From Clostridia bacterium (GTDB lineage Bacteria; Bacillota; Clostridia; Oscillospirales; CAG-272), in contig JAFTQL010000035.1 of the NCBI GenBank assembly GCA_017462795.1, positions 62,360 through 126,359 on the forward strand: a stretch of DNA of 64,000 nucleotides, written 5' to 3'. Made by a program: the position numbers and the translations under genes. Shown here piece after piece: positions 8,899-45,611 of this stretch. How positions within the stretch are numbered: the first letter of the stretch is position 1; every line of letters starts with the position of its first letter. Under the pieces are notes generated by a model. That model had not been told where the DNA came from. It did not search any database and was given only the letters and a program-made list of their open reading frames with translations.

Positions 8899-10836
8899 TT
8901 AATCTTCTTTTTTGCGCTTTGCAACAGCTACCGCACCCACTGCCAATGTCACAACAGATACTGCCGCGAATGTTACTGTAGAGCCGCATCCGCCGTCAGC
9001 CTTATCGGTGGTAACAGATGACGTTCCGTTTGCCTCGGCATCGGTGGTTGCCTGAGTGCCGTTGTTTTCGGTAGTTGAGTCATTTGTATCAACAGCCCCT
9101 GTGTCATTCGCCTCTGTATCTTTGGGCTCTTCCTTTACCTTAACAACGCTTGCTGGAGTTACGATAACATTCTCGCCTGTCTTGCCCTCGGGCCATACAA
9201 GTGTGCCCTTTGCCGCTTCCGCGTCGCCTGCTATAACGGTTACGTGGTCGATAAGAACCTTGACGTTAGGTCCGCCCGAGCTTGTTCCCAGCATAAAGGA
9301 GAAATCTGTTGCGAGAAGCGAGCTCTGAGGAGTTACCTCTATCGTCTTATCTCCCGAGGTAATGGTAGCGCTATCGAGCTTACGGTTTACAAAGTGGAAC
9401 TGATAGGTTACAAACTCAAAGTTATCTCTTGCGTCGTTGATAGCCGCTCCCTGCTCTGCCGTGTATCCGTCCTTACGGGTAGCGGAGTCAAATCCGTTGG
9501 AAGACTCGTTGGTCTGGTCGTAACGGATGCAGATATCGCCCGAATGAGTCGCAAGACCTGTAGTCTCATCAAGTGTTGTGTTGGGGCAGAGGCAGAGATA
9601 TCTCTTGTTATTTGCTTCCACAAACTTAAACTCTATCTCAATGGTGAAATGGCGGTTATACTCGGGAATAACTATACCCGAAGGAACAAGGTAAACCTTG
9701 GTGGAAGCGCCCTCAAGATACAGACCCTGCTCAGTATACGCATACTTTGCGTCGCTGTCAGCGCCTTCCTCGGGCTTTGTTACATAGTAACCTACGCTTG
9801 CGAGGTCGGTCACCTTGGTAAAGTCAACATGGTGAAGAATAGCCCCGTCAACGTATTCGGTAAGAGGTGTGTCCTCAAAACCGAGAATCTCTGTGGACTT
9901 TGCAATAGCGCGGTTCGCGTCGAAGAGCACAGGTGTGATCGTGATAGGCGTGTCGGGAGTGGAGGGAGTGTCGGGGGTGTCGGGAGTAACAGTACCGCCA
10001 TTGTCTATGTACGTCTGCTTGAGATCAACAGAATACTTAGTAGCGGTAGCGGTCTTAACAGTAACGTCGGAAACGCATCCGTCAAAGTTGGTATATACTG
10101 TTCCGTATACCTCACGGAGACCGAGAGCGAAATTACCCGCGCCGATGGCTACATCCGTGATATCAAGCTCAATAGTCTTGGTCGTGTCGTTTGCGAGAGT
10201 CATGGTAAGCTTGGTCATGGTCTTGCTTGCGGCATCAAAGGTGAAGTCATAGATAACAGCACTCGTGCCTTCAACGATTGCCTGTGCGATAGCGCTGTTT
10301 GTGGCAATGGTCTGCTTGTTCCAATACAGATGGTACTTATTGGTATCATCGTAGCATATCTTTATGGACGACTGATTTTCATCCGTCATCTCGGCACAGT
10401 AGTTCCATGCTCCGGCACTGTTAACATTAGCCGAGTTATCGGTTCCGACACCGAATACCAACCATGTATAGTTCTTGCTGGAGGGAGCTATGGTGGTTGC
10501 CGCACCCTCTGTATTAGAAGCCCAATTGTAATGGGTGGTGGTCATCTTAACAGAAAGAGTAACATTTTCCGTGATTGCCGTAAGATCGTAGTTGGCGGGT
10601 GTGAGCATAACAGCCGCTCCGCCTTGAACAAACGCATGCAAAAGCAGACCGTTCTGAGTAAGGCTTGTCGTACTTGCCTTAAAGGGAGTCGCGGAGTTGT
10701 TCTGGTTTACCACAGCTTTAACACCGAGATCAACTGTCGTGGTTTCAGCGGCAGAGACAAACGGTACAGCCACGGATGCGAGGAGAAGCACCATAAGTGC
10801 CGTTGCAAGGATACGCTTAAAAAGTTTTGTTTTCAT
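8899..10836 (-). CDS. Cassette A anchored member: secreted protein of unknown function with C-terminal GGCGS-TM-KRKK tail
   Basis: 645 aa. Signal peptide ...SVAVPFVSA|AE. The N-terminal domain is paralogous to 14037-15266 (LLLHAFVQGGAAVMLTPANYDLTAITENVTLSVKM vs GLYIKAFCQGAAGIMITHEQYDMTELTEDYTISVTM). A TPDTPDTPSTPDTP linker leads to a second beta-rich domain ending ..VLIDHVTV, then a T/D/N/E-rich linker. C-terminus: ADGGCGSTVTFAAVSVVTLAVGAVAVAKRKKED. Confidence 0.8.
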   Translation of the reverse strand: MKTKLFKRILATALMVLLLASVAVPFVSAAETTTVDLGVKAVVNQNNSATPFKASTTSLTQNGLLLHAFVQGGAAVMLTPANYDLTAITENVTLSVKMTTTHYNWASNTEGAATTIAPSSKNYTWLVFGVGTDNSANVNSAGAWNYCAEMTDENQSSIKICYDDTNKYHLYWNKQTIATNSAIAQAIVEGTSAVIYDFTFDAASKTMTKLTMTLANDTTKTIELDITDVAIGAGNFALGLREVYGTVYTNFDGCVSDVTVKTATATKYSVDLKQTYIDNGGTVTPDTPDTPSTPDTPITITPVLFDANRAIAKSTEILGFEDTPLTEYVDGAILHHVDFTKVTDLASVGYYVTKPEEGADSDAKYAYTEQGLYLEGASTKVYLVPSGIVIPEYNRHFTIEIEFKFVEANNKRYLCLCPNTTLDETTGLATHSGDICIRYDQTNESSNGFDSATRKDGYTAEQGAAINDARDNFEFVTYQFHFVNRKLDSATITSGDKTIEVTPQSSLLATDFSFMLGTSSGGPNVKVLIDHVTVIAGDAEAAKGTLVWPEGKTGENVIVTPASVVKVKEEPKDTEANDTGAVDTNDSTTENNGTQATTDAEANGTSSVTTDKADGGCGSTVTFAAVSVVTLAVGAVAVAKRKKED

Positions 10837-10908
10837 AAACTTTGTCCTTTCTGCCTATATTCAGGCTTTAAATTTTATATTCAACCGATCTCCATCGGTC
10901 AAAACACT

Positions 10909-12444: not shown

Positions 12445-12509
12445 TCTCTGTTTCCCTTTCATGAAAAATTTATTATTCCGCGGTATTACCCGCTAAGAAC
12501 CACAGTTTA

Positions 12510-13879: not shown

Positions 13880-14008
13880 TCAAAGCTCTTCGATGCCTAC
13901 GGACATGTTGATGTCGTCAGCCTGTATACCGTTACTCAATGCAATGATATCCTTGCTTTCAAGAGCTATAGCGATCACAACGGGAGTTGTATATGTATTC
14001 TTTTTCAT
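13880..14008 (-). CDS. Small ORF A (42 aa), member of a three-copy peptide family
   Basis: Below the ORF-track size cutoff; own translation: MKKNTYTTPVVIAIALESKDIIALSNGIQADDINMSVGIEEL. AGGAG lies ~9 nt upstream. It shares Y-[TI]-x-P-x(9)-[KEQ]-D-I-[IM]-x-x-S with the ORFs at 30253-30399 and 41214-41354. Confidence 0.55.
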   Translation of the reverse strand: MKKNTYTTPVVIAIALESKDIIALSNGIQADDINMSVGIEEL

Positions 14009-27851: not shown

Positions 27852-28901
27852 TTAAATTACAAGATCGGTAATAATAGGTAAATGATCGGAGGGATATACG
27901 TGTACGCCGTCCGAGGTAGTGTACTCATAATCACCAACCCGATATTCAGCCACCTTATCCTTCAAAGCGTCGCTGACAAAACAGAAATCTATTCTGTCTC
28001 CGTTTCCGCTGTTACCGTCAATCGCCTGATAGTCCTGTCCCTGTGTTTCGACTCTGAACGCGCTGTTCCAAGTGTCACTGACTACGGTCTTTTTCGCGAT
28101 CAGTCCCGAATCGTTCCAGCCGCTATCCGTAACGGTACTGTAGAAATTTTTCCATCCCGTACCGTAATCCAAGCCGTTGGGAGCATCGTTAAAGTCCGCG
28201 GTCATAATGACCTTGTCGGTGCCATACTCGACCATAAGCTCCCCGACAAGCCTTTGCAGCATCTGCATCTGAGCGCAGCGCTCAAAGAACCTGAGCCTGA
28301 AAAGCAATTTTTCAACATCAGTCTTAGACTCATAATTGCCGTTGTTGTGTCCCCTGTGCTGGAGATGGGTATTAACATATATAATATCCTCTCCATCAAT
28401 ATCAAGCACAACATAATTCATAAGTCTTGAAGCGAGGCTGTAGCTATTGGGACTTGGCATTCCGTTCTTTTTAAGACCTGTGCCCTCATAATGTCCCAGA
28501 GCCGCAAGCTCATCCGATGTCATTTTTCCATCGGAAATAAGTCCGTCATAAGTCAGCGCAACCGTGGAATTAGTTCCGTCCGAGGTAAGCCAATTCCAGC
28601 CGTGATGCTTTACCTTAATACCGTTCTTTATATAAACAGAGCAGTATTCCATAGTATGAGCTTTGTGAACAGTATCGGGAATATAGCGTGTATATCCCTC
28701 CCCCAGAGATATATTGTTCACCCAATTATTGACGTCCTCCTGAAGTCCGACGATATCGGGCTGAAATGACAGTATCTGTTCAGCCACTGCCCGGACTCTG
28801 TTCTTTGACTGTCGGTTAAGCTCCCCCGTTCCGCCCTTGTGGCCATCCACGTCATAGGTATCCATGCGGACGTTGAAGCTGAGTATTCTGAGTTTTTTCA
28901 T
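27852..28901 (-). CDS. Cassette B signal-less EEP-fold phosphoesterase
   Basis: I prefer the ATG at 28901 (MKKLRILSFNVRMD), 3 nt after the upstream stop. Motifs IVGLQEDV, ADFND and YPSDHLPIITDL. Close paralogue of 33502-34683. Confidence 0.8.
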   Translation of the reverse strand: MKKLRILSFNVRMDTYDVDGHKGGTGELNRQSKNRVRAVAEQILSFQPDIVGLQEDVNNWVNNISLGEGYTRYIPDTVHKAHTMEYCSVYIKNGIKVKHHGWNWLTSDGTNSTVALTYDGLISDGKMTSDELAALGHYEGTGLKKNGMPSPNSYSLASRLMNYVVLDIDGEDIIYVNTHLQHRGHNNGNYESKTDVEKLLFRLRFFERCAQMQMLQRLVGELMVEYGTDKVIMTADFNDAPNGLDYGTGWKNFYSTVTDSGWNDSGLIAKKTVVSDTWNSAFRVETQGQDYQAIDGNSGNGDRIDFCFVSDALKDKVAEYRVGDYEYTTSDGVHVYPSDHLPIITDLVI

Positions 28902-28903
28902 AA

Positions 28904-30238
28904 TCAGTCTTGTGTCAGTGTTTCGGTCTTTGTTGCTCCGCAAGAAATATTTCCGTCAGCGTCACTCATATAAGTAGTTACCGTTGCGGAAACAGTAGCC
29001 TCTGCGGGAACTCCCGCAATTACCAGAACATACAGATAATCTCCGTCGATCACCGTCTCACCCGACCGAGTCTGCTTTGTAGTGTAAGTAATTCCGCCAC
29101 CCTGAACAGATGTGTAGACGGTATTGCAGGATACCTTCTGAGCCTTGGTAACTCCGCCATATGTAACGGTTACGTAAAATCCTATATCATTTATCTCTCC
29201 GAGATCCTCTGTATCAAGAACTCCGACCATACGGTAATCAACAAGTCCGTCAACCACCCTGTCCTGAATACCGTAGTAGCGTGTACTTGCGCTCACATCT
29301 GACGTGCAATCCGATACGTTCAATGTTTTTGTTGAGCCACTCTTCAAATTAGCATAATTCGAAGGATTATACTCTGACGGCAGTACAGTACAGCTTGTGA
29401 CTGTGGTGTTGGCATTTACCAAACCTATAATACTACCAGCTGTCGAGGTACCCATCTCGCCTTCAAGACTCACACTACAATTTGAAACAGATACAGATCC
29501 CGCATTTACACAATATCCTATTATACCGCCGACATTACTCGTGCCTTTTACAGTTCCGTTAAAAGAACAGTTGCTGATAGTTACAGTCGTTGATGTATTT
29601 TTTGATGTATCGTTTGCAACAGCGTTCACAGAGCCTATAATACCGCCAACCTGACCTGCGCCCTTAACATTACCGTTTATAATGTGAACATTATCGATAA
29701 TCAGATCGCTGTCATAAACATTTAAGTTCATTCGTGAGCCTACAATAGCACCAACATTTGCAACAGCGGCAGCAGATTCGCCGTTACTGCTTGTATTTTC
29801 CGCTGACGCATCAACAGTAATATTGATCAATGTCAGGTTCTTGATAGTACCTCCTGCAAAACGGAACATACCGGGACTTGATTTGCAGTTTGTTACATTG
29901 ATTCCCGCAACCGTATGACCGTTACCATCAAATGTACCGTCAAAGATTATACCCTTCCACGTTTTACCCGTATAGTCGATATCCGCAGTCAGCTTTATGT
30001 ATGCACCCTTCAGATTAGTATGAGGGCTTGTAGAGCTGTTGAATGCCGCAAGCTCATCCGCAGAACCGATAGTAAGCTCTATAGACGCGAAATCATCTTT
30101 TGTATAACCGCTGGTGCCGGCAAGCCATGACGACATGGAAACCGGTGTTCTTTGCGCGCTGTCAGTCGCAAATACTCCCATGGGAAGAAGAGTGAGAAGC
30201 ATTGCGCAAAGTATTAAGCAACATATAATTCTTTTCAT
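28904..30238 (-). CDS. Cassette B free member: secreted GLUG-type beta-helix repeat protein ending in the shared C-terminal module
   Basis: I prefer the start at 30238 (MKRIICCLILCAMLLTLLPMGVFA|TD, with GGGGGG upstream). FDGTFDGNGHTVAGINV is followed by repeated ..N[CV]..NG.V.G...VGGIIG. units. The C-terminal module reads ..YRMVGVLD..IGFYVTV..NTVYTSVQGGG..GDYLYVLVIAGV.. Confidence 0.75.
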   Translation of the reverse strand: MKRIICCLILCAMLLTLLPMGVFATDSAQRTPVSMSSWLAGTSGYTKDDFASIELTIGSADELAAFNSSTSPHTNLKGAYIKLTADIDYTGKTWKGIIFDGTFDGNGHTVAGINVTNCKSSPGMFRFAGGTIKNLTLINITVDASAENTSSNGESAAAVANVGAIVGSRMNLNVYDSDLIIDNVHIINGNVKGAGQVGGIIGSVNAVANDTSKNTSTTVTISNCSFNGTVKGTSNVGGIIGYCVNAGSVSVSNCSVSLEGEMGTSTAGSIIGLVNANTTVTSCTVLPSEYNPSNYANLKSGSTKTLNVSDCTSDVSASTRYYGIQDRVVDGLVDYRMVGVLDTEDLGEINDIGFYVTVTYGGVTKAQKVSCNTVYTSVQGGGITYTTKQTRSGETVIDGDYLYVLVIAGVPAEATVSATVTTYMSDADGNISCGATKTETLTQD

Positions 30239-30252
30239 CGTCTTACCCCCCG

Positions 30253-30399
30253 TCAAAACGGCCATTGGTAAACACCGTAACCGGTGCTTGTGCCGTTGCT
30301 GTCATCAAGCGATAACGTACCGCCCGATGTCACCATAATGTCTTCCGTTTGTGTACAGATCAATGTGCACTCGGGTGAAATATATTCTTTCATATTCAT
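30253..30399 (-). CDS. Small ORF B (48 aa; 46 if started at the second ATG), member of the three-copy peptide family
   Basis: Own translation: MNMKEYISPECTLICTQTEDIMVTSGGTLSLDDSNGTSTGYGVYQWPF. AAGGA is upstream. The stop lies 14 nt before the start of 28904-30238. Confidence 0.55.
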   Translation of the reverse strand: MNMKEYISPECTLICTQTEDIMVTSGGTLSLDDSNGTSTGYGVYQWPF

Positions 30400-30471
30400 T
30401 TCTTTCCTTATTAATTAATTATTTTGATTCACATCAAGGGGCGGTGTACGCCCCCCGATTTTATAAGGATA

Positions 30472-31947
30472 TTACTTTCTCTTTTTGCAAACTACCGCAC
30501 CCGCGCCTGCAAGTACCGTCATTATAACAATGCCTGCGCCGATCGCTGATCCGCATCCGCCTTCATCTGTTACAGCCTCTGTTCCGTCTCCGCCTTCTGT
30601 GGCAGCAGAACCGTTATCTGTTGTATTTGCGGTGCCATCCGTTTCGGTATTGCTGTTGTTACCTGTATCTGTACTATCGTTATTGTTATCGGTATCGGCA
30701 CTGCCGTTATTGTTGTTATTATTGTTATTGTTTTCGGAAGATGCTGTCTTGCTGATAAGAGTATCCGCAAGAAGCGCTGTCGCGAGCGTTGCGTCCTCTG
30801 CCGCCGATGTTGTACCCTCGTTTCCGCTCTCGGTCACATTACCTGACTGAACAGCATAACCGAACACTGCATTTGCGCTGCCGTCTGCTGCCGCCGCACC
30901 CGTAGTTATTGCACCGAAGTTTTTGCAGTTGGTAACACTTACCTTATGAGAATCGGCAGTTCCGATAATTGCTCCGACATAATAGTTGTTTGTCTTGACA
31001 CTACCGTTATTGATACAACCGCTGATCACGCTTGCCTCAGTTGCCTGAGTGGAGTAACAGCGCGCAATGATTCCGCCTGTTCCCCTTGTATTCTTATCCA
31101 TAGCCTTGGATTCGACAGCACCCGCGTTACGGCAGTTTGTAACAGTGATCTTTACATTGGATGTACCTACGATACCGCCCGCATCGCGTGCAGCGGCGGT
31201 TATCGCTCCGGTATTTGTGCAGTTGGTAACTGTATGAGTGGAAACGCCTGTTGCCTCGTTGAACTCATCCTGCGTTACCTTTTGTCCCGCAACATTATAT
31301 GAACCTACACCCGTAACACTGGAATAACCTACTATACCGCCTATCATTGCGCTCGTACCCTCAACGGTTGCTTTGTTCCAACAGTTATCAACAGTAGTGT
31401 TCATGCCCTTATCTCCGGTAATACCGCCGACTATACCGCCTGTTCTGTTGCCGCCCTTAAAAGAGCAGCCCTCTCCAAGAATAACATTCTTGATGGTTGC
31501 ACCCTGAACATTTCCGAACAGACCTACGTGCTGAGTAGTTCCGTAATCAACCACGAGGTTATCAATTGTATAGCCCTGACCGTCAAATGTACCTCTGAAG
31601 GGCTTTGTGTTTGCCTCGGAAGCGCCGCCTCCGATAGGCTTGAAGTTGTTGACACCTGTCATATCGATGTCATTTGCAAGATAGAGCGTGATCCCGCTGA
31701 AGCGGCTCTCCGCTATGCTGACAGCGGTAAGCTCGAGAGCTGTGGATATCTTGAATTCCTTTGCCTCGGTCTCTGGATTTGCTATGTATTCCGCAACGCT
31801 GGGAATATTGGAAAGATCCTTCTGCTCCACTCTCGCGTCGGAATATCCTACTATGTCCGCTGTGATCTGCGCGTCTGCCGCCATGGCAGGAATGGCAATA
31901 CCCAATGCAAGAATTGCCGTAAGAATGAATGCGATTACTTTTTTCAT
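30472..31947 (-). CDS. Cassette B anchored member: secreted GLUG-type beta-helix repeat protein with C-terminal GGCGS-TM-KKRK tail
   Basis: 491 aa. Signal peptide ..GIAIPAMA|AD. FRGTFDGQGYTIDNLVV, then repeats with TGGIVGG, IGGIVGY, AGGIVGT, TGGIIAR and VGAIIGT. A poly-Asn/Thr/Asp linker (NNNNNNNNN) follows. C-terminus: DEGGCGSAIGAGIVIMTVLAGAGAVVCKKRK. Confidence 0.8.
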   Translation of the reverse strand: MKKVIAFILTAILALGIAIPAMAADAQITADIVGYSDARVEQKDLSNIPSVAEYIANPETEAKEFKISTALELTAVSIAESRFSGITLYLANDIDMTGVNNFKPIGGGASEANTKPFRGTFDGQGYTIDNLVVDYGTTQHVGLFGNVQGATIKNVILGEGCSFKGGNRTGGIVGGITGDKGMNTTVDNCWNKATVEGTSAMIGGIVGYSSVTGVGSYNVAGQKVTQDEFNEATGVSTHTVTNCTNTGAITAAARDAGGIVGTSNVKITVTNCRNAGAVESKAMDKNTRGTGGIIARCYSTQATEASVISGCINNGSVKTNNYYVGAIIGTADSHKVSVTNCKNFGAITTGAAAADGSANAVFGYAVQSGNVTESGNEGTTSAAEDATLATALLADTLISKTASSENNNNNNNNNGSADTDNNNDSTDTGNNSNTETDGTANTTDNGSAATEGGDGTEAVTDEGGCGSAIGAGIVIMTVLAGAGAVVCKKRK

Positions 31948-31999
31948 ATTTTCCTCCTGAATTTAATTTATTTTAGAGCGTTTTTACGCATAGCTCTCT

Positions 32000-33466
32000 T
32001 TATGAAAGGCTCTTGTAAAGCGACTCGAACTGACTGTTCCAGGATGTTACATTTCCCGAATAGTATGTGGAGATAGAGCCCTGTACCTTATCATCTCTCC
32101 AATAGGTATCCATCTGATACATATTGTAAGGATCGGGGGTAATGTTTGAACACATAGCCGCAAGATAGGTCAGAACGGACGTATCGCGGATTATCTCCAG
32201 CATATCCATCTGCCTTGGGCTGTTTGCGTACTGAAGTCCGAGTGTCTGCTCATAATATGCGGGCACTGCCTCGTAATGAGAATAGTAGGATTTTACCTCT
32301 ATCACCTTTCCGACAAGCTCAACATCAGCCGCGTTCTTCATTATCATGATCATCATTGCCGATGCGCCCGCAGGTGTGTAATATCTTCCCTGCTCCTCAT
32401 TATACATGGGCACGGGTGCAAGACCCCAATCAAAATCACTGTCACGGAAAAATTCTCCCGTTGACAAAAATCCGTGGTAGAACAGCGAGCGTCCCGCCTC
32501 AAATACGCCTCTTCCGGCATCCGAATCCGCAGATACCGTAACTACCATATTTGATACGTTGTTTTCAAAAACGGAGCTGAGATAGTCGTACATCTCAATA
32601 AAGCTCTCGCCTGCCGCTTCTTTCATATATATGTTACCGTCTTTGGTGCTTCTCTCGGTGACATTTGCGTTGAACGCTGTCATAAAGCCGCGGCTCGCCA
32701 CGCAGTGTCCCACATATCCGAAGGTATCCGAGGCAAGATTGCCCACACCGCCGTCAGCAGCTCCGCCAACCTTCTTTGCCATGCCGAACATGACCTCAGC
32801 CGTCCACTTATTTGCCTCAACAAGATCGTAAATATTGTCAAGACCGTGGTTGTCAAGTATTTCCTCATTGAAGAAGACAGCGCCCATACCCGAATAGTCT
32901 GTCAGAGACGCGTCGCTTCTGATACCGAAAAGCTTGCCGTTGATACCGTAGGTATTAAGCATGTCCGAAAGATACCAGGGCTTATCCGTCTCAAGCACCT
33001 CGACAGTTGTCAGATCAAGAACGAGTCCGTTTTTGAGGGCATATCCATAGGACGCGCTGGTCTCCGCCATGATAAGGTCGAACTCCGCGGTGCTGTCCAT
33101 CGCCATGGCGAGCAAACGGTTATTGAACGTCGCTCTTGTTGCCCAGTTGCCGTCAAGCTGAGTATAAGACATGTTGATACCAAGATGGGCTTTCACCTGA
33201 GCGTCTACTCCGAAGACCGCCTGACTTACAACCGTTCCGCCTGCCTCATTGGCATAGTCCAGAGTATCGTGAGTGGGTAAAAGTATTTTTATATCTTTTC
33301 CCTTGTTGTCCTCAGCGGCAACACTAAGAGGCAGTCTGTCATCATGGGTCTCAACCGTTCCCGGGGACGTATTGGAGCTTCCCTCATCCGGACCCTTACA
33401 TGACACGATAATGGGGATCAACATAAGCACCGCAAGCGCTAACGCCAGAACTTTGATCTTTCTCAT
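32000..33466 (-). CDS. Cassette B lipoprotein, solute-binding-protein-like (orphan)
   Basis: 488 aa. Lipobox IIVSC|KG. Paralogous to 10909-12444 and 45612-47093. Confidence 0.75.
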   Translation of the reverse strand: MRKIKVLALALAVLMLIPIIVSCKGPDEGSSNTSPGTVETHDDRLPLSVAAEDNKGKDIKILLPTHDTLDYANEAGGTVVSQAVFGVDAQVKAHLGINMSYTQLDGNWATRATFNNRLLAMAMDSTAEFDLIMAETSASYGYALKNGLVLDLTTVEVLETDKPWYLSDMLNTYGINGKLFGIRSDASLTDYSGMGAVFFNEEILDNHGLDNIYDLVEANKWTAEVMFGMAKKVGGAADGGVGNLASDTFGYVGHCVASRGFMTAFNANVTERSTKDGNIYMKEAAGESFIEMYDYLSSVFENNVSNMVVTVSADSDAGRGVFEAGRSLFYHGFLSTGEFFRDSDFDWGLAPVPMYNEEQGRYYTPAGASAMMIMIMKNAADVELVGKVIEVKSYYSHYEAVPAYYEQTLGLQYANSPRQMDMLEIIRDTSVLTYLAAMCSNITPDPYNMYQMDTYWRDDKVQGSISTYYSGNVTSWNSQFESLYKSLS

Positions 33467-33501
33467 AAAAACTTTTCTCCTTTTTATTTTATTTTTTTAC
33501 A

Positions 33502-34683
33502 TCAACCGATAGCAAAATCCACGATGACAGGAAGATGATCCGAAGGATAAACGTCCACATTCTGTTTTTGAGTTCCCTCCGCCAGAGCAAGTGTCCATTT
33601 TACCTTTCCCACCTGATATAGCATGACTCTGTTTTTAAGCTCCTCGGACACAACACAGAAATCTATCCTTCCGTTGAGCTTATTCTCTTTATCGGATACA
33701 TACCCCTGACCTTGCTTGCTGATATCAAACGCGGAATTCCAGCTATGCTCCAGCTTACTGCCTTGCTTGGCGATCTCCATGCTGTCGAAAAGATACTTTT
33801 CCACGTTTTTGAAAAATCCGCTTGTAGATCCGTCATTGAAGTCGCCGGACATAATAACAGACGCATCCGTATATGTCTTTTTCAGCTCCTCTATCTGCGC
33901 CTTTACCATTTCATACTGCAAGCCTCTCTCGCAATAGCGGAGCATGTACAGCGGATGATCGGTATATTCTCCTTCGCTGTAGCCGCGGTGCTGGAAATGA
34001 GCGTTTACATAAATAACATCCTTGCCGTTGACCTCAAGCACCACGTAATTCATTATTCTCGCCGCCAGCTTGTTACCGTAGCTCTTGTTGTTATCATTTC
34101 TGTCGACATATGTGGTCTTAAGTCCCGCGTCATTGACGATGCCGATATCCATAAGCGCAAACGCGTCCATGTCGTAGTATCCGTCACCGTCCGTAAGCTC
34201 CGCGTAGGTCGCTGCCACTGTCTGATTTGTTCCGTCGGACGTCAGCCATTTCCAACCGTGAGCCTTAACCGTGATACCCTTTTTTACGTAGATAGACAAA
34301 TATTCGTGAGTTGATGAGTCCATCTTTACGTCGGGAATATAACGTGCATATACGTCCCCGCTTATGTTGATGTTATCCACCCAATTCTGTACGTCCTCCT
34401 GAAGTCCTATAACATCGGGATCATAGGAAAGTATCTGCTCGCGCACAGCCTGCACACGGTTTTTTGACAGGGCGTCGAGCGTACCCAGGACTGTTGTATT
34501 CAGATCCATGCGCACATTGAAGCTGACAAGTCTGAGATTCGGGTCGCCGATGATCTCCTCTGTCGAGGGTGCCTCTTGCGTATCGGTGGTATCCGCGGGA
34601 TGATCTCCCGTGTCATTACACGCGCCTGCCATAGGCAACAGCAGGCAGATACACAGAAGAAAGACTAAAATTCGCTTTTTCAT
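33502..34683 (-). CDS. Cassette B exported EEP-fold phosphoesterase lipoprotein
   Basis: 393 aa. Lipobox MAGAC|ND. LRLVSFNVRMD, VIGLQEDV, GDFND and YPSDHLPVIVDF. Confidence 0.8.
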   Translation of the reverse strand: MKKRILVFLLCICLLLPMAGACNDTGDHPADTTDTQEAPSTEEIIGDPNLRLVSFNVRMDLNTTVLGTLDALSKNRVQAVREQILSYDPDVIGLQEDVQNWVDNINISGDVYARYIPDVKMDSSTHEYLSIYVKKGITVKAHGWKWLTSDGTNQTVAATYAELTDGDGYYDMDAFALMDIGIVNDAGLKTTYVDRNDNNKSYGNKLAARIMNYVVLEVNGKDVIYVNAHFQHRGYSEGEYTDHPLYMLRYCERGLQYEMVKAQIEELKKTYTDASVIMSGDFNDGSTSGFFKNVEKYLFDSMEIAKQGSKLEHSWNSAFDISKQGQGYVSDKENKLNGRIDFCVVSEELKNRVMLYQVGKVKWTLALAEGTQKQNVDVYPSDHLPVIVDFAIG

Positions 34684-39417: not shown

Positions 39418-41214
39418 TTAAAATGAAATATCCACGATCTCGGGACAGTGATCGGAGGCGATAAGCGCATAGGTGCAGGTCACTGTTGCAAAACCGTTTA
39501 CTGTAATATTGCCGTATTTCCATACCTGGTCAATGGAATCGGCATATTTTTTTGTGGGACGGCTCCATGAGATATAGGTCTCATAGAGAGTGCTGTACTC
39601 AGCATCCTTGTGATGTCCCGATGAATCGTTCTTCAATGCAGCCTCATCCCATGCGGATACCAGACCGCCACCACGGAGTATATCGGCAGGGGCGGAGGAA
39701 ACAGTGCAGTTGAGGTCGCCGCCCACTATGAGAGGAAGCTCGGCATAGGAGGCATTTGAGCGTATAGTACCGATAAGCTCCAAAAGCTGTCCCGCCTCGG
39801 AAAGGCGCGCCGCGTCTCCCTCAAGATCACTTGTCCAGTAAAAGTGAGTTGACATGGCAATAAAGCACTTGCCCGTAGCGCGCACACGCATGACAGCCCA
39901 GGTCACCGACTTGGAATTCACGTCATTCAACCCCTCATAAAGCAGGTATCCGCTATCCACGATCTCAAGCTTATCGGAACGGTAAAACAGGGGAGTAAAA
40001 TTGGATGAAACTCCGTTGACCCTTACCTCGGACTAGCCCAGCTCTGTCAGCTTGCTTATCAGACTGCCGCTTCTGACGTTGGAGCTGAATTCCTGAAAAC
40101 CGATCACATCGGGAGAATACGCCTCAAGCATCTCAAGCTGCATTCTCATACGCACGCTCTCGCTGTAGCTCTCCCATCCGTACATGTTGTAAAACATGGT
40201 GCGGATGTCGCCTGTGCTTGCAAGAGTGCTTTCCGTTCTGCGCTCAAAGCCCTCGGTGGCGTCAACTGTATCCGAACGCTCGGAGACCGTGTAGTCCTTA
40301 TTACCACCGGAGGGAATGAGCGTCTTTGTTACATAATCGTAAAGCTCGTCATACGCGGCAAAACCGTTTGCCGAAAGCTCCAGCTTACCGTCCGATGCCT
40401 TTACGCTGTACTCATTCTTCCCGGGGGGCGAGGAGGAACGGGAGGTATTTCCTATCAGTATCTCATGCTCCCCTGCCGTGCCGGAGTCATCCGAAATATT
40501 CAGAAGTACACCGTAATTGTTCATCAGCCAGTATCTCAGACTGTAGGCAAAAAAGTGTTCATTTACATCCGCGTTCTTGGGAATGACCATGTCGTATTCA
40601 CACAGCTCCGTACCCAATATCTTGACACTGCCTATTCCGTATTTTACCCTTTGATGGACGGTGTGGGCAGAGGAAACGGTGAGAGTACTCCCCGCCTTCA
40701 TCTGAGCGGACATTATATTGTTCATAAAATACTGTACCGCCGTGGTGCACGCCTCCGCGCTCTTTCCGCAGATAACGACCTTGTTACCGACAATGCCGAT
40801 ATAGTAGTCGTTCATCTTTTCAAGCGTTTCGGCTATCTGCTGTGACTCTGCCCACTGTGTAACGCCCACAAGTATGGCGGGCTCGTCGGCAAGCACATCA
40901 CTGTAGTATCTGTCCGTGGACATCTGCAGCAGTACTCCCGTGCCGTTCTTTATCATCTTGGACATAGCGCCGATGACGGATACAAATGCGTCATCCGATG
41001 AAAGAGAGGACGCATAGTAAATGCTGTAGTCGCTCTGACCGTTTTCAACCACCGTCAGAGAACTTCCCGCAAAATCGGAAGAATCGGTGGACGTACCGCC
41101 CACCGTTTCTCCCGTATATTCTGATTGACCGAAGCAACCGACAAGACACACGGCTGTCATAGCCATCGCAAGAATGACGCAGATCAAACTATATACAGTG
41201 TGTTTCCGCATCAT
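39418..41214 (-). pseudogene. Cassette C exported EEP-fold phosphoesterase lipoprotein, interrupted by one in-frame TAG (40033-40035)
   Basis: ORFs 40033-41214 and 39418-39960 are in the same frame, and the 72 nt between them are open. The read-through translation ..VIGFQEFSSNVRSGSLISKLTELG*SEVRVNGVSSNFTPLFYRSDKLEIVDSGY.. aligns with the paralogue 41389-42585, ..ILAFQEFGKHYRKQEFLGGLEALGYTEVGNG..LTPLFYRADTLKVVACGY.., with the stop opposite Tyr. Lipobox CLVGC|FG. C-terminal SDHCPEIVD. Confidence 0.75.
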
Positions 41215-41354
41215 CAGAGCCTCATCAGATCGTCTATACTTATACCTGTGATATCATTGTCACTGTAAGCGCTCGTTGCCAGTGACGCGGTGATTATATC
41301 CTGCATATCAAAGATCTTTGCGTCTGCTATAGGACAAATATATTTCTTTTTCAT
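41214..41354 (-). CDS. Small ORF C (46 aa), member of the three-copy peptide family
   Basis: Own translation: MKKKYICPIADAKIFDMQDIITASLATSAYSDNDITGISIDDLMRL. GGAG is 8 nt upstream. Its TGA overlaps the ATG of the downstream lipoprotein gene (TGATG), which indicates translational coupling. Confidence 0.55.
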   Translation of the reverse strand: MKKKYICPIADAKIFDMQDIITASLATSAYSDNDITGISIDDLMRL

Positions 41355-41388: not shown

Positions 41389-42585
41389 TTAATTAATGGA
41401 AAAATCCGTTATCTTCGGACTGTGATCCGAGGAGAGACAAGCGTATCTGTCGGTAACTGTCGCGAAAAGCTCCACCAACAGTCCGTCCTGCCATACATGG
41501 TCTATAGACCATTCGCCGCTTTTTGAGGAATGGGAGGGACAGGTGATGAACAGCTCTGCCTCCGTGTCCCATACGGCATACGCGCCGTGACCGTTGACGG
41601 AGTTCAGCGCGCATCCCGAATCGTCAGCCGCGCTTTGTACTCTCACAAGACCGCTCTCAGCGAGTATGTCAAGCGGCTCTGTGTCTCCTCTGCCGTAGCT
41701 GCAGTTGAGGTCGCCTCCGACTATCATCGGCAAATTGCCGTGCTCCGCGCGGATATCCGCCAGCAGCTCTGTCAGCTCTACGGCATTTGAGCACCTGGTT
41801 TTATTGGCAACTCCCGCCTCAAGCTCGGGATCATTCCACATAAAGTGAGTACACATGGCGATAAATCTTTTTTTGTCGTCATTGCGCTCAAATACCGCCC
41901 ATGTTACCGATTTGGAGCTTACGTCGTTAGCACCGCCGAACAGTCTGTATCCGCACGCGACTACCTTCAAGGTGTCCGCTCTGTAAAACAGGGGGGTGAG
42001 GTTAGTTCCCTTTTCGTTGCGCAGCTCGCCGTTTCCCACCTCGGTATAACCAAGCGCCTCCAAGCCACCAAGGAACTCCTGCTTGCGGTAATGCTTGCCG
42101 AATTCCTGAAAGGCAAGTATATCGGCATTGTAGGATCTCAGCAGGCTGAGCTGAAAGGGCTGACGCTCGGCGGGCGTGGTGTTTGCCTTTTTGTTGTTCC
42201 AGCCGTATACGTTATAGTTCATATAACGTACCCGACCCGCCCGCTTTGCTCCGCAGGTCCTCAGAGAAACGCCGTCGCCCGACAACGATGTAATACCGTC
42301 AAGCGATTCCTTTGTCCGCAGCTCCTCACGGAGAGCCGACATTGCCGCCTCGTAGCCGTAGGCAGAGCCCGCGCATATGTATACGCGATCACCCTCGGAG
42401 CGGATCACATATCCGTCACCCTCGGGCATATCCGCATCGCCGATGTATATATCGCCGTCCGCCCCACTGTCGCATATTATTTCGGAAGTTATTCCCTGAT
42501 ATTCGGCTATCGCCGCCCGCAATTCCGACGCGGTATAGCGCTCCTCAAAGGACGCCTCTGCCGGAATTATTATCCGTTGATCCAT
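41389..42585 (-). CDS. Cassette C signal-less EEP-fold phosphoesterase with N-terminal accessory domain
   Basis: 398 aa. The N-terminal ~100 aa (..DIYIGDAD..DRVYICAGS..) resemble the accessory domains of 12510-13760 and 39418-41214. Motifs ILAFQEFG, GGDLNCS and SSDHSPKITDF. The start overlaps the stop of 42585-43796 (TAATG). Confidence 0.8.
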   Translation of the reverse strand: MDQRIIIPAEASFEERYTASELRAAIAEYQGITSEIICDSGADGDIYIGDADMPEGDGYVIRSEGDRVYICAGSAYGYEAAMSALREELRTKESLDGITSLSGDGVSLRTCGAKRAGRVRYMNYNVYGWNNKKANTTPAERQPFQLSLLRSYNADILAFQEFGKHYRKQEFLGGLEALGYTEVGNGELRNEKGTNLTPLFYRADTLKVVACGYRLFGGANDVSSKSVTWAVFERNDDKKRFIAMCTHFMWNDPELEAGVANKTRCSNAVELTELLADIRAEHGNLPMIVGGDLNCSYGRGDTEPLDILAESGLVRVQSAADDSGCALNSVNGHGAYAVWDTEAELFITCPSHSSKSGEWSIDHVWQDGLLVELFATVTDRYACLSSDHSPKITDFSIN

Positions 42586-43796
42586 TATGCAACAGTTTCA
42601 ACAGTAATATCAGCTGCTGTGTTACCACTGACAGTGATCTTATATGTGTCTCCTACCTGTTCGCCATTTTCCATATGGTAAGCTACTGCGTAGAAGGTAT
42701 ATGTGGTATTCACTTTCAGACCCGTCAGCTTCATACAATACAGATAATCTCCACCGAGCCACCAAGCATGACATGTATTATCGTCTGCAATAATACTCTT
42801 GTATACCGTACCACAAGCTATGGGATCAAGAGTCTTATTGTCAGTGGAAAGCTTAAATCCTATATTTTCGCTTGCAAGGTTTTGGGTATTCAGCAATCCA
42901 ACCAAACGAAGTGTATATTCATCATTCTCTACTGCAGTTGCCTGCACACCGGCAATTTTGGTTACGGTGTCTGTTTTTTTGCCATTGAGTGTAACAGTAG
43001 TCAGGTTGTCAGATGATACAGCATAGAAATCATTACTTATATCTTTTTCATCATCCAAAGTAAATTCACCGCAGTTAGTAAAATAAGCGTTGAATCCAGC
43101 CTTAAGCTGTACATAGGCAAATCCTATACCTATATCGCACGAACCGTTTGCGATAGCATCCTTTACATCTTCAGTCAAAGGCACAGCAATGTGATAAATT
43201 GCAACCGCAGGGGTACTGTCAGACGCTATATCGTCATTTCTTCCGATTAAAATACCATTTTCCATGGCTGACGCTTTGTTTACAGAAGCATAAATCTTAG
43301 GTCCCCATGCACCGGACCAACCTCTATCCTGCAAAGTCAGTTTATCATATGTTAAATGATTTGTATACTTGCCATCTAAATCATCATCTTCACTGTAAGC
43401 AGCGTAATGCACTCTTAAAACAATTTTATTATCAACTTCACTATCCGCAGTATTAAAGTCAACGTATATAAATTCTTCGGCGTGTTGATGTGCGTTTGTA
43501 TAATCACTATTGTATTTTTTCAAATAATTCATAGTCGTTTTTATATACAAGTAATCGCCATCATGAGCTACGGCAAATGAGTCTCCATTGGTAGAATAAC
43601 CATTCACTGCCGTTCCCGCTACTGTGTTATTCCACACATAAGAAGCTCCACTGTATTCGGGATTCAACTGCTCCGCAGTCATTCTGTCTCCCTGCGCGAC
43701 CTCAATAGCGGGAGATGCCGCTGTCCAAGCCATTGCAGGTACGCTTAACGCAAAGAGCGAAGCGCAAACAAGTAAAATAGAAATAATTTTTTTCAT
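42585..43796 (-). CDS. Cassette C free member: secreted protein, N-terminal domain paralogous to 43818-45590, C-terminal shared module
   Basis: 403 aa. Signal peptide ..LSVPAMA|WT. HDGDYLYIKTTM and IYHIAVPLTEDVKDAIANGSCDIGIGFAYVQ..YFTNCGEFTLD match HAGDYLYIYTRM and IFHIAVPLSEANKTALANGSCNIGVGFAYIQ..YYTNCGEFTLD. The C-terminal module reads ..TLRLVGLLN..IGFKLS..GTVYKSIIADD..GDYLYCMKLTGL..TYTFYAVAYH. Confidence 0.75.
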   Translation of the reverse strand: MKKIISILLVCASLFALSVPAMAWTAASPAIEVAQGDRMTAEQLNPEYSGASYVWNNTVAGTAVNGYSTNGDSFAVAHDGDYLYIKTTMNYLKKYNSDYTNAHQHAEEFIYVDFNTADSEVDNKIVLRVHYAAYSEDDDLDGKYTNHLTYDKLTLQDRGWSGAWGPKIYASVNKASAMENGILIGRNDDIASDSTPAVAIYHIAVPLTEDVKDAIANGSCDIGIGFAYVQLKAGFNAYFTNCGEFTLDDEKDISNDFYAVSSDNLTTVTLNGKKTDTVTKIAGVQATAVENDEYTLRLVGLLNTQNLASENIGFKLSTDNKTLDPIACGTVYKSIIADDNTCHAWWLGGDYLYCMKLTGLKVNTTYTFYAVAYHMENGEQVGDTYKITVSGNTAADITVETVA

Positions 43797-43817
43797 GTCA
43801 ATTCTCCTTTGATTTTT

Positions 43818-45590
43818 TTATTTTTCGGAGGTCTTTTTTGCTTTTCCAAAGCATGCCGCCGCAATAAGCACAACAGCCATCACCATTGCCATGCCGCCGA
43901 TGGAAGAATTACATCCGCCCTCCGCGTCATCAGTGCTGTTGGTGTCAGTCGCCTGAACATCGCCGCTTGTTTCCACATCCGAGTCGCCCGCGGTCGTTTC
44001 CTCGGCATTCGTGTCGCTCGGAACGGAGGGTACTGTGGACTTATTAGCCACAAAGTCGGCATAAGAGGCTGTTATAAACTCCTCAAATTTGGGCATTACA
44101 AGCTTCATTCCGTTCATATTGAGATGGGAAACATCTGTATTGGTCAGGCAATACTGAGAGCGGAATGTCTCGCTTGTCATGTCAACGCCCGAAACAGCGG
44201 GATCGTTTGCCTTGAAGCAATATACTCCCTGTGCCTCGCAGACACTTATCATGGCGTTGGCATAATCCGCAGACTTAAGTCCGATGTCGTTTGTACCGCC
44301 AAAGTTCCAGACAGTTGTAAACATTATCATAGCGTCGGGGTACTTCTCCTGCAGACCGTCAATGAGAACATTCAGCGCTCCCATAAAGGTCTTGGGGTCG
44401 GTGCTGTCCACTGTTCCCAGCGGTACTTCATTGTTATAGTCATTGCGTCCGCCGTCTACGATAATAAGGTCTGCGTCGTTATCCGCCATGCCCTTATAAC
44501 GGTCAACCATGGGAGTGGGATCAACGGTGGGAGCATAGCTTGATACCATTCCTCCGTTCATGCCGTAGTTCTTGAACTTCCAATAGTATTTGTCAGAAAG
44601 AAGCTTGGGCCATACGTAATCATTACCCATGGTGTGTCCCGCAAAGTAACTGTCTCCAATAATATTTACGGTAAGATCCTCAAGAGCCATGTCATAGGCG
44701 CGGCTTCTGTCCGCCTCTACCCACGCCTTCATCTGAGCGGCGATCTGCTCGGGAGTTACCTCGGCGATGTCCGCGCTTCCGATAACATTATCGGGAGTTG
44801 TGGTATTCGTACCCTTTTTAAGGGTAACAGTGGTAAGCTTATCCTCTGTTATATCGTCGTAAAAATCGTTACCTACGTTGTCGGCGTTGTCAAGAGTGAA
44901 CTCGCCGCAGTTGGTGTAGTATCTCTCAGCACCCGCTGTCTTGCACTGGATGTAGGCAAAGCCCACGCCGATATTGCAGGAACCGTTTGCGAGAGCCGTC
45001 TTGTTCGCCTCGCTGAGCGGTACCGCGATATGGAAGATAGCGTCCTCGCTGTTCTTGTTGCTGTACTCGTTACGTCCGAAGAGGATACCCGCCGCAAGAC
45101 CGCTATCCTTGTTTACGGTGGCGTTATAGCCGGGTCCCCATTCGTCGTTCTGACGCGCTCTGTCAACGACACCCTCTTTATAGTAGGATATATTTGTTCC
45201 GTCAAGCACATAAGGACCGTAATTGGGCTTGGTGATCATAATGTAATCCACCTTGTTGTCGCCCTGAGTAAGGTCAACGTAAATAAATTTCTCTACCTGT
45301 GTACGGTAAGCATAGGGAGGAGTCATCCTTGTGTATATGTACAGATAATCTCCCGCGTGTGTTATTTTAAATTCGCCCACGCCCTCATATGCGCCGTAGT
45401 TAGTTCCCGCAACGGTAACCGCGCCGCTCCAGTCATACGCCGCGTCACCCTCAAGCTCGGCGTATATCTGCTCATATGTCATTCCGTTGCTCTGCGGAAC
45501 CTCCACAGCGGGGGTTGTCCACGCCATTGCGGGAACGCTCAGCAAGAGCAAGGAGATACAGGCAAGTATCAAAGATATAGCTTTTTTCAT
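43818..45590 (-). CDS. Cassette C anchored member: secreted protein with shared N-terminal domain + SGNH esterase domain + C-terminal GGCNS-TM-KAKK tail
   Basis: 590 aa. Signal peptide ..LSVPAMA|WT. SGNH blocks VNIIGDSYFAG, GMNGGMV, IVDGGRNDY and DVSHLNMNGMK. C-terminus: AEGGCNSSIGGMAMVMAVVLIAAACFGKAKKTSEK. Confidence 0.8.
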   Translation of the reverse strand: MKKAISLILACISLLLLSVPAMAWTTPAVEVPQSNGMTYEQIYAELEGDAAYDWSGAVTVAGTNYGAYEGVGEFKITHAGDYLYIYTRMTPPYAYRTQVEKFIYVDLTQGDNKVDYIMITKPNYGPYVLDGTNISYYKEGVVDRARQNDEWGPGYNATVNKDSGLAAGILFGRNEYSNKNSEDAIFHIAVPLSEANKTALANGSCNIGVGFAYIQCKTAGAERYYTNCGEFTLDNADNVGNDFYDDITEDKLTTVTLKKGTNTTTPDNVIGSADIAEVTPEQIAAQMKAWVEADRSRAYDMALEDLTVNIIGDSYFAGHTMGNDYVWPKLLSDKYYWKFKNYGMNGGMVSSYAPTVDPTPMVDRYKGMADNDADLIIVDGGRNDYNNEVPLGTVDSTDPKTFMGALNVLIDGLQEKYPDAMIMFTTVWNFGGTNDIGLKSADYANAMISVCEAQGVYCFKANDPAVSGVDMTSETFRSQYCLTNTDVSHLNMNGMKLVMPKFEEFITASYADFVANKSTVPSVPSDTNAEETTAGDSDVETSGDVQATDTNSTDDAEGGCNSSIGGMAMVMAVVLIAAACFGKAKKTSEK

Positions 45591-45611
45591 TTTTATCCCC
45601 CGATGAAATTA

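Follow-up and report, generated by a model that had tools for sequence, protein, structure and literature searches.

Three secreted proteins encoded in the window, a 64,000-nucleotide stretch from a Clostridia bacterium, end in the same tripartite tail, which combines a GGC[GN]S signature, a hydrophobic helix of about 20 residues and a basic cluster. The tail is widely distributed and had not been catalogued before. It is confined to certain gut and rumen Clostridia, most of which are uncultured. An earlier note, made from the letters of the window, had proposed that the tail might be a signal dedicated to sorting or anchoring, marked by an invariant Cys. The tail's candidacy as such a signal is supported by its modularity, by the number of protein clusters that carry it, and by the failure of the window tails to match curated models. 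That it is a sorting signal rather than a conserved membrane anchor is what we infer. We see roughly an even chance that the tail is a Cys-class C-terminal signal for sorting and surface anchoring, in which export and transient anchoring would be followed by lipidation of the Cys and removal of the helix.

Three tail proteins in the window

The three C-terminal peptides picked out in the earlier note were placed correctly, at the exact ends of three open reading frames (Table 1); the genes lie on the minus strand, and the plus-strand translations are meaningless. GGC[GN]S occurs exactly three times in the six-frame translation of the window, compared with a mean of 0.13 and a maximum of 2 in 200 residue shuffles. 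All three copies lie 26-31 residues ahead of a stop codon. Nucleotide identity among the three tails is only 44-49%, and therefore they are not recent copies of one another.

All three proteins have SPI-type N-terminal signal peptides (AMA/AD, VSA/AE and AMA/WT in proteins 1, 2 and 3), and each has the long low-complexity linker that the earlier note described, rich in Thr, Asp, Asn and Glu, ahead of its tail. Apart from these elements the carriers are indeed unrelated. Homologues of protein 1 contain GLUG (PF07581), the passenger of protein 2 has no Pfam or NCBIfam match and no recognised domain, and protein 3 contains a GDSL/SGNH hydrolase domain (PF13472, E = 6e-13). A protein identical to protein 1 is already on record, from a 'Clostridia bacterium' MAG. 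The protein at the left edge of the window is absent from the record, no further tails occur at the right edge, and a recurring small ORF family has no NCBIfam match. The window also encodes seven lipobox proteins, a sign that these cassettes make use of the Lgt/Lsp lipoprotein pathway.

Table 1. Coordinates of the three tail proteins and their C-terminal elements within the window
Feature	Position	Strand	Description
Tail protein 1, 491 aa	30472..31947	minus	Signal peptide, GLUG-repeat passenger, Asn/Thr/Asp linker and GC tail (translation)
Signal peptide of protein 1, residues 1-23	31879..31947	minus	MKKVIAFILTAILALGIAIPAMA; hydrophobic N-terminus, AxA site, lipobox absent
Low-complexity linker of protein 1, residues 403-462	30562..30741	minus	Includes an N9 run
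Signature motif G-G-C-G-S of tail 1	30547..30561	minus	Cys is residue 465; tail HMM 43.8 bits
Hydrophobic transmembrane segment of tail 1	30490..30546	minus	AIGAGIVIMTVLAGAGAVV
Basic cluster CKKRK of tail 1	30475..30489	minus	Predicted cytoplasmic; followed by stop codon 30472-30474
Tail protein 2, 645 aa	8899..10836	minus	Signal peptide, passenger, linker and GC tail (translation)
Signature motif G-G-C-G-S of tail 2	8980..8994	minus	Tail HMM 36.6 bits
Transmembrane segment and basic cluster KRKKED of tail 2	8902..8979	minus	TVTFAAVSVVTLAVGAVAVA
Tail protein 3, 590 aa	43818..45590	minus	Signal peptide, N-terminal domain, GDSL/SGNH hydrolase domain, linker and GC tail
Signature motif G-G-C-N-S of tail 3	43905..43919	minus	Tail HMM 40.0 bits
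Transmembrane segment and basic cluster KAKKTSEK of tail 3	43821..43904	minus	SIGGMAMVMAVVLIAAACFG

A portable module with a Gly-Cys core

The earlier note had suggested looking for the tail beyond these three proteins with a profile. A 36-position tail profile retrieved 922 representative protein clusters among 1.84 billion; the exported proteins that bear the module thus number in the hundreds and are unrelated to one another. The tail lies at the extreme C-terminus in 139 of 141 independent profile matches, and an N-terminal signal is present in 60 of 68 full-length carriers. The cargo bears many different extracellular Pfam domains; carriers include esterases, phosphodiesterases, and lectin-like, adhesin-like, cohesin and LRR proteins, and they are sited in carbohydrate-utilisation cassettes. 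About 70 of 120 GLUG homologues end in the tail, as do 16 of 120 GDSL homologues, and six GDSL homologues end in a plain transmembrane helix and basic cluster without the Cys. All three orthologues of protein 2 retain the tail. The GLUG, GDSL and protein 2 families each have members with and without the tail, which marks it as a portable module.

Genuine matches to a degenerate tail pattern in GTDB species genomes were all in Clostridia (21/21), with a pattern that catches at most 8% of tails and matched some MAGs twice. Six of the 27 matches to this pattern were due to chance (Planctomycetaceae, Paenibacillus, Sphingobacterium, Desulfovibrionaceae, one Lachnospiraceae and one Blautia MAG), and 41 of the 59 loci matched by a broader pattern in metagenomes lack a genuine tail. 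The named genomes with the tail are Clostridia only, nearly all of them gut or rumen MAGs.

The tail has the consensus EEK[KGS]-G-C-G-S-x-[VI]-GGG…A/G patch…KKK[ED]. The earlier note had called an acidic-G-G-C invariant. This description holds within this genome; elsewhere, across 239 non-redundant tails, only G-C is invariant and the Gly-Gly is not conserved. The residue just before G-C (position -2 relative to the Cys) is K, G or S (44%, 24% and 21%), and the next one out is K or E. Position -1 is Gly in 77/77 tails although six residues were permitted there, position +2 is only S, A or G and never P, and position +4 is V, I or L in the same 77 tails and in about 90% of the 239. The hydrophobic stretch begins at +3 or +4, and the GC signature adjoins the helix without a spacer. 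The helix, about 20 residues long and rich in Gly, Ala and Val, contains Pro in just 34 of 239 tails and has small-residue patches at +5 to +7 and +16 to +18 throughout the family. The distance from the Cys to the basic residues is 22-24 residues in 66 of 77 tails, with K or R at +23 to +25, and the tail ends 25-30 residues (about 28) past the Cys. Lys outnumbers Arg in the basic cluster (K:R 3:1), and E or D usually comes next. G-C identity is 1.0 across 12 orthologues of protein 1. In orthologues, tail conservation nearly equals that of the catalytic domain, and pairwise identity in the linker falls to 0.1-0.2.

Could the tail simply be a membrane anchor? An unprocessed type I anchor, with the Gly-Cys forming a disulfide with a partner or an S-layer component, binding metal, or capping or packing the helix, is a possible but rather doubtful explanation. 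The small-residue patches in the helix could equally serve oligomerisation of such an anchor. Moreover, since six GDSL homologues carry a Cys-free helix and basic cluster, a helix on its own can serve as an anchor in that family, a point that also counts against processing. However, the G-C never varies in over 200 tails from unrelated proteins, in contrast to the drifting remainder of the helix, and the spacing from the Cys to the basic cluster is tightly fixed. The lineage restriction of the tail and its resemblance to the cleaved MYXO-CTERM signal would likewise be unexpected for a generic anchor.

A candidate route to surface anchoring

If the tail is a processed signal, its features suggest the following route. 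Its first step, Sec export driven by the N-terminal SPI signal peptide, can be read directly from the sequences. The C-terminal helix would then halt transfer with the Lys-rich end kept in the cytoplasm, giving a type I membrane protein, as predicted from the sequence and the positive-inside rule. With this topology the invariant Gly-Cys would come to lie right at the membrane's outer face, and the Thr/Pro/Glu/Asp linker would span the wall. The later steps are modelled on MYXO-CTERM, whose Cys-dependent cleavage by the CPBP protease MrtX also takes place in E. coli and for which Lgt is the leading candidate for lipidation (PMC11980579). By analogy, a separate enzyme may lipidate the Cys thiol, and the helix would then be removed by an intramembrane endopeptidase that cuts just distal to the Cys; a 'myxosortase' of the CPBP/Rce1 type is the most probable candidate. 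The end product would be a passenger that is C-terminally lipid-anchored on the cell surface. We tentatively suggest a more specific form of this route, a dedicated pathway in Gram-positive gut and rumen Clostridia for C-terminally lipid-anchored enzymes and adhesins, in which Lgt or a relative might lipidate the mirror-image Cys and a lineage-specific intramembrane protease might remove the helix.

The search for a processing enzyme, which covered gene neighbourhoods only, found no PF02517 (CPBP), rhomboid, sortase or exosortase gene around about 50 tail-encoding loci (about 430 kb); the Pfam-annotated contexts of 10 loci gave no candidate partner. The earlier note had seen no sortase-, exosortase- or rhombosortase-like gene in the window; Pfam context bears this out and reveals no rhomboid or CPBP gene there. 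Of the polytopic proteins encoded near tails, some are transporters (Asp-Al_Ex, EamA, PTS EIIC, DUF554 and a glycine transporter) and some are regulators; the others are unannotated and lack CPBP motifs. This result counts against processing and favours an unprocessed anchor. Genes for housekeeping sorting enzymes usually lie away from those of their substrates. Paralogues of CPBP proteases are common, so that finding one in these genomes would in itself prove little. It also counts against processing that the gain from exchanging a helix for a lipid in a single-membrane cell is not obvious.

A motif that abuts the helix without a spacer is, according to Haft, a hallmark of signals cut by membrane-embedded enzymes (10.1101/2023.06.07.544157). 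Such an enzyme might also come from outside the CPBP family, being rhomboid/rhombosortase-like, exosortase/archaeosortase-like or of a new family, and the tail would then serve as a cleavage or shedding signal, with or without lipid or wall attachment at the new C-terminus. The tripartite, spacer-less design is that of GlyGly-CTERM, PEP-CTERM and PGF-CTERM (10.1101/2023.06.07.544157), and the G-G-C of the window tails has the Gly-Gly of GlyGly-CTERM. We nevertheless consider this explanation improbable: the GlyGly-CTERM, PEP-CTERM and PGF-CTERM models have no match at E<=10, the Gly-Gly is not conserved outside this genome, as the residues at position -2 indicate, and the four previously described Cys-containing signals are all linked to CPBP enzymes.

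Should the tail prove to be a processed sorting signal, it would be the fifth member of the class of Cys-containing C-terminal signals and the first in Bacillota. It would mark at least about 900 protein clusters as surface-displayed, many without a recognised domain, in abundant and mostly uncultured gut and rumen Clostridia. Lipidation by an Lgt-type pathway, if true, would make these proteins the first C-terminal 'lipoprotein' class in single-membrane bacteria. A single-membrane host, with no outer membrane and no T2SS, would also simplify finding the enzyme that lipidates the Cys of MYXO-CTERM-type signals. A tail HMM would bring an immediate gain in localisation calls for metagenome annotation.

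Comparison with known signals

The earlier note had suggested a comparison with curated sorting-domain models, and the window tails pass none of those in NCBIfam or Pfam. They have no match to TIGR03901 or TIGR03382 and only sub-threshold matches to MXAN_* anchored families, and most Lys-rich tails likewise fail every curated Cys-CTERM model. This does not extend to the whole family: when 10 consensus tails were scored against TIGR03382 (GC_trans_RRR), one Arg-rich variant passed (18.9 vs 15.85 bits), in an alignment that begins at G-C, and another tail scored 14.3. The Arg-rich variant also nearly passes the TIGR03901 MYXO-CTERM model, and other tails have sub-threshold matches to MYXO-CTERM-anchored families.

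Because the Arg-rich variant passes TIGR03382, MYXO-CTERM ('GC-transmembrane-RRR') is, judged by sequence, the closest known kind of signal to the Clostridia tail. Both are tripartite, lie at the extreme C-terminus of dozens of unrelated exported proteins, have an invariant Gly-Cys (generically GCGC in MYXO-CTERM and GC[GAS][SA] here), and have a transmembrane core without charged residues. However, the hosts are Clostridia (Bacillota) in all 21 genuine genome matches, not Myxococcota, to which MYXO-CTERM is restricted. Unlike MYXO-CTERM, the Clostridia tail is Lys-rich with E or D usually after the cluster, has a single signature Cys, and begins its helix 2-3 residues past that Cys. Moreover, its hosts belong to families known as single-membrane, and thus surface delivery by a T2SS across an outer membrane, as for MYXO-CTERM, would not be expected.

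Two other Cys-containing signals, Synerg-CTERM (TIGR04564, MrtS) and CGP-CTERM (TIGR04288, archaeomyxosortase MrtA), share features with the tail, and their models have no match at E<=10. Synerg-CTERM has a Gly/Ser-rich signature and a single invariant Cys that abuts the helix with no spacer, but its Leu-rich helix contains an invariant Pro, and it is restricted to Synergistota and linked to T2SS. CGP-CTERM has an invariant Cys followed by Gly, a Thr/Ser-rich linker before it and single-membrane host cells (10.1101/2023.06.07.544157). It differs in its archaeal hosts (Thermococcales), its length of 20 residues and its invariant Gly-Pro after the Cys, where the Clostridia tail has Ser or Ala at +2. 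The JDVT-CTERM model (NF033191), whose family-specific residues are DP before the helix, matches one tail only, at 13.4 against a cut-off of 27.

LPXTG and NPXTG signals resemble the tail in occurring on Gram-positive surface proteins and in having a wall-spanning linker, a C-terminal helix and a basic end. It is very improbable, in our judgement, that the tail is itself a sortase-type wall signal, with GC[GA]S in place of LPXTG and the protein transpeptidated to peptidoglycan. Although the LPXTG (TIGR01167; 12.8-13.9 vs cut-off 15.9), Rumino_NPXTG (NF033846; 17.6 vs 23.5) and LAETG (NF041528; 16.6 vs 30) models all give weak matches, these stay below cut-off and reach no further than the helix and the basic end (for example, profile positions 5-30). 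The tails have no LPXTG-like pentapeptide, as the earlier note recognised, and have an invariant Cys instead. They also lack the spacer typical of sortase substrates (10.1101/2023.06.07.544157), and no neighbourhood examined contains a sortase gene.

Firmicu-CTERM (TIGR04145) was tried and rejected: protein 3 scores 13.5 bits and a domain-plus-tail chimera 15.8 against a cut-off of 50, in alignments limited to profile positions 9-133 of 191 and to the N-terminal domain, with the tail part of the model unreached even by the chimera. Eight other tail proteins have no match to this model, and a literature search on Firmicu-CTERM returned nothing useful.

The N-terminal lipobox, [LVI][ASTVI][GAS]C, recognised by Lgt/Lsp, also resembles the tail in that small residues flank an invariant Cys, which sits on the outer side of the membrane beside a lone hydrophobic helix. 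It lies at the opposite end of the protein, with the helix in inverted topology, and the tail has charged or small residues, not hydrophobic ones, at positions -3 and -2. We reject Lsp-type cleavage ahead of the Cys on account of this inverted topology and the absence of a hydrophobic lipobox at -3. The likeness is that of a mirror image: read outwards from the helix, the C-[GA]-[SA]-hydrophobic order of the tail reflects the hydrophobic-[AS]-[GA]-C order of the lipobox.

The GC tail as a portable C-terminal module

The window's three tail proteins end in the same order: GGC[GN]S, 19-20 hydrophobic residues and a basic cluster (the GC tail; positions are counted from the Cys). Residue shuffles predict 0.13 occurrences of GGC[GN]S in the six-frame translation of the window; there are three, and in all of them a stop codon follows 26-31 residues later. 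The C-termini singled out by the earlier note are real and end three ORFs, but plus-strand translation there is meaningless, since the genes lie on the minus strand. The tails are not recent duplications or conversions because their nucleotide identity is only 44-49%. Each protein begins with an SPI-type signal peptide (boundaries ...AMA-AD, ...VSA-AE and ...AMA-WT in proteins 1, 2 and 3) and has a long Thr/Asp/Asn/Glu-rich linker before the tail. Identical proteins have been recorded in a ruminant gut metagenome and in a 'Clostridia bacterium' MAG at NCBI.

The GC tail is a conserved portable module. Among the matches listed, about 70 of 120 protein 1 homologues end in a GC-type tail; some Bacteroidota homologues end instead in apparent T9SS-type C-terminal domains. 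For protein 3, 98 of the 120 homologues listed stop right after the GDSL domain, 16 carry the linker and GC tail, and 6 have a plain helix and basic tail without Cys. Protein 2 has only four relatives, and all three full-length orthologues keep the tail. Pairwise identity among 12 protein 1 orthologues falls to 0.1-0.2 in the linker and is 1.0 at G-C, 0.7-0.8 at several helix positions and on average 0.59 in the catalytic domain. Position -1 is Gly in 77 of 77 distinct tails, under a filter that admitted six residues there; +2 is limited to S/A/G, +4 is V/I/L, and 22-24 residues separate the Cys from the first basic residue in 66. The consensus of 239 non-redundant tails reads E-E-K-[KGS]-G-C-G-S-[VSTA]-[VI]-G-G-G, with an A/G patch at +16 to +18 and a K-K-K-[ED]-[ED] end; K outnumbers R by 3:1, and charged residues enter the helix core in only 5 tails. 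Thus, of the invariant acidic-G-G-C first proposed, the G-C core is invariant but the preceding residue varies (K, G or S).

A second Cys just before the cytoplasmic basic cluster (...VVCKKRK), Cys487 in protein 1 and Cys580 in protein 3, recurs in 33 of the 239 tails and is not invariant. The protein 1 linker includes nine consecutive Asn and is Asn/Asp/Thr-rich; orthologues have Thr/Pro/Glu/Ala-rich linkers instead, so its composition is free to drift.

How widely is the tail distributed? A degenerate DNA pattern for [EK]K-GCGS-x20-[KR]3[ED] matched GTDB contigs (one genome per species) at 27 places, 21 of them genuine (in frame, with a long ORF ended by the tail and a linker before it) and six chance matches. 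All 21 are in Clostridia, including Clostridium sp. CAG:448, Oscillospiraceae, Christensenellaceae, Ruminococcus sp., Anaerotruncus sp., Mageeibacillus sp. UBA1257, Ca. Scatosoma and many ruminant RGIG MAGs. Because the pattern catches at most ~8% of tails, yet matched three MAGs twice, these counts suggest tens of tails per genome. A local tail HMM separated tails (14-50 bits) from noise (<7 bits) and found further tail genes beside the pattern hits. Across 1.84 billion representative proteins, the same profile, of 36 positions, retrieved 922 clusters at E<=0.001; G-C lay 25-30 residues from the end in 139 of 141 new top hits, and 60 of 68 full-length hits had an N-terminal signal. Cargo includes CBM9, LamG, BspA-type LRR, GDSL, GH25, metallophosphoesterase, GLUG, cohesin and Ig-like domains, and the majority of carriers lack any Pfam domain. 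The reading in the earlier note holds up: this conserved module of many exported proteins is a candidate sorting or anchoring signal.

Cassettes that encode the tail proteins

Each tail gene of the window lies in a repeated cassette with an AraC regulator, an endonuclease/exonuclease/phosphatase-family (EEP) lipoprotein, an SBP-like lipoprotein of ~490-517 aa and glycoside hydrolases. The window's exported proteins comprise seven with a classical N-terminal lipobox, three with a GC tail and three with a signal peptide and no anchor. Several Clostridia MAGs keep this synteny: an AraC regulator, an SBP-like lipoprotein (~480-517 aa, Pfam matches absent or weak), at least one GC-tail protein, 1-3 Exo_endo_phos (EEP) proteins and glycoside hydrolases. 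ABC permease genes were not found beside the SBP-like lipoprotein. The cassette resembles a polysaccharide-utilisation locus and may be a Gram-positive equivalent of one.

Two tail-less paralogues, with signal peptides and no anchor, adjoin tail proteins, so one passenger may exist in both an anchored and a released form. The EEP/lipoprotein/tail-protein cassettes of this and other MAGs also conserve a family of short ORFs (MKK-x-Y-x-x-P-...-[ED]-D-[IV]-[IL]-T-x-S...), immediately ahead of the gene for the tail protein in two other MAG loci (L034, L037) and, for one window copy, just downstream of tail protein 1. The family has no Pfam hit on record and no match among the NCBIfam models; it could encode a small regulatory or precursor peptide.

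Coordinates of tail proteins and associated features (L-numbers are tail-encoding loci from other MAGs)
Feature	Locus	Position	Strand	Remarks
Protein 1	window	30472-31947	minus	491 aa; GLUG-repeat family (PF07581 in homologues)
Protein 1 linker	window	30562-30741	minus	
Protein 1 Cys487	window	30487-30489		
Protein 2	window	8899-10836	minus	645 aa; no recognised domain
Protein 3	window	43818-45590	minus	590 aa; GDSL/SGNH hydrolase domain
Tail-less paralogue	window	42585-43796	minus	403 aa; signal peptide and N-terminal domain in common with protein 3
Tail-less paralogue	window	28904-30265	minus	453 aa; GLUG-like; downstream of protein 1
Syntenic cassettes	window	8899-13760, 27852-34683, 41389-47093		
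Syntenic cassettes	L034-L037, L099, L100			
ORFs of 42-51 aa	window	41214-41354, 30253-30393, 13880-14008	minus	
ORF of 42-51 aa	L034	9831-9986		
ORF of 42-51 aa	L037	9785-9940		
ORF of 42-51 aa	L035	6321-6461		
ORF of 42-51 aa	L036	16367-16519		
Membrane proteins	L036	441-5095		four tandem ~180-aa paralogues; 8-TM 434-aa protein

Anchoring and the search for a partner enzyme

Sequence features clearly indicate Sec-type export, a C-terminal helix whose positive-inside cluster sets Gly-Cys on the outer face of the membrane, a disordered linker that spans the wall, and distribution of the tail as a module on surface-type cargo. By analogy with MYXO-CTERM and other Cys signals, the Cys would be lipidated, and an intramembrane protease, most likely one of CPBP type, would cut off the helix and leave a surface protein lipid-anchored at its C-terminus. 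We regard Cys lipidation with helix removal by a CPBP-type protease as evenly balanced between right and wrong. The spacer-less motif and small-residue patches within the helix are compatible with recognition inside the membrane; processing there by a non-CPBP enzyme seems improbable.

As the earlier note had reported, the window has no sortase-, exosortase- or rhombosortase-like gene; rhomboid and CPBP genes are likewise absent. Genes for CPBP proteins, rhomboids, sortases and exosortases are also missing from ~50 tail-encoding loci (~430 kb), where the polytopic proteins near the tails are transporters, regulators or proteins that have neither annotation nor CPBP motifs. Against the processing model this counts for little, since the genes of housekeeping sorting enzymes usually lie apart from those of their many substrates. 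A possible, if rather doubtful, rival reading takes the tail as an unprocessed type I anchor in which G-C has another role. The membrane proteins of L036, encoded upstream of a tail protein at a distance of 5-9 kb, have no Pfam match or CPBP motifs; we rejected them as tail-linked, as they occur in one locus only.

Relation to known sorting signals

A scan against NCBIfam release 20 (June 2026) at E<=10, the comparison proposed in the earlier note, covered the three tails of the window, ten tails of consensus type and eight complete tail proteins; none of the three window tails reached a curated cut-off. LPXTG, NPXTG and LAETG models aligned below threshold and only to the helix and basic part. 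With neither a pentapeptide nor a spacer in the tails, and sub-threshold scores only, sortase-type wall anchoring is very improbable. Firmicu-CTERM (TIGR04145) matched weakly in the protein 3 N-terminal domain (residues 53-193; positions 9-133 of the 191-position model; E = 0.05, or 0.01 in a chimera) and left the tail unaligned, in the chimera as well; a distant relationship is possible between this domain, though not the tail, and the family's passenger part.

Four Cys-containing tripartite signals have been defined (MYXO-, JDVT-, Synerg- and CGP-CTERM), each paired with a CPBP/Rce1-family intramembrane protease and none from Firmicutes (Haft 2023 preprint, 10.1101/2023.06.07.544157). Cys-dependent cleavage of MYXO-CTERM by the myxosortase MrtX has been shown, including in E. 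coli, and Cys lipidation, possibly by Lgt, has been proposed but not demonstrated (PMC11980579). Our full-text literature searches found no description of a comparable clostridial or Bacillota signal. The informative matches of the NCBIfam scan were to MYXO-CTERM. For one Arg-rich variant, ...EEGCQSAAGAPLFFVLLLAGAALVLFGRRARSAAQ, the score on TIGR03382 'GC_trans_RRR' exceeds the cut-off (18.9 vs 15.85 bits) and that on TIGR03901 falls just short of it (19.8 vs 20), with an alignment that begins at G-C; other tails give sub-threshold matches to MYXO-CTERM-anchored families. Much of the shortfall probably comes from Lys in the GC tail where MYXO-CTERM has Arg, a difference likely to reflect low-GC versus high-GC genomes. 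The GC tail is thus not categorically new. It belongs to the Cys-containing C-terminal signals as an uncatalogued variant, the first of them seen in Bacillota, and is widespread among uncultured Clostridia of gut and rumen.
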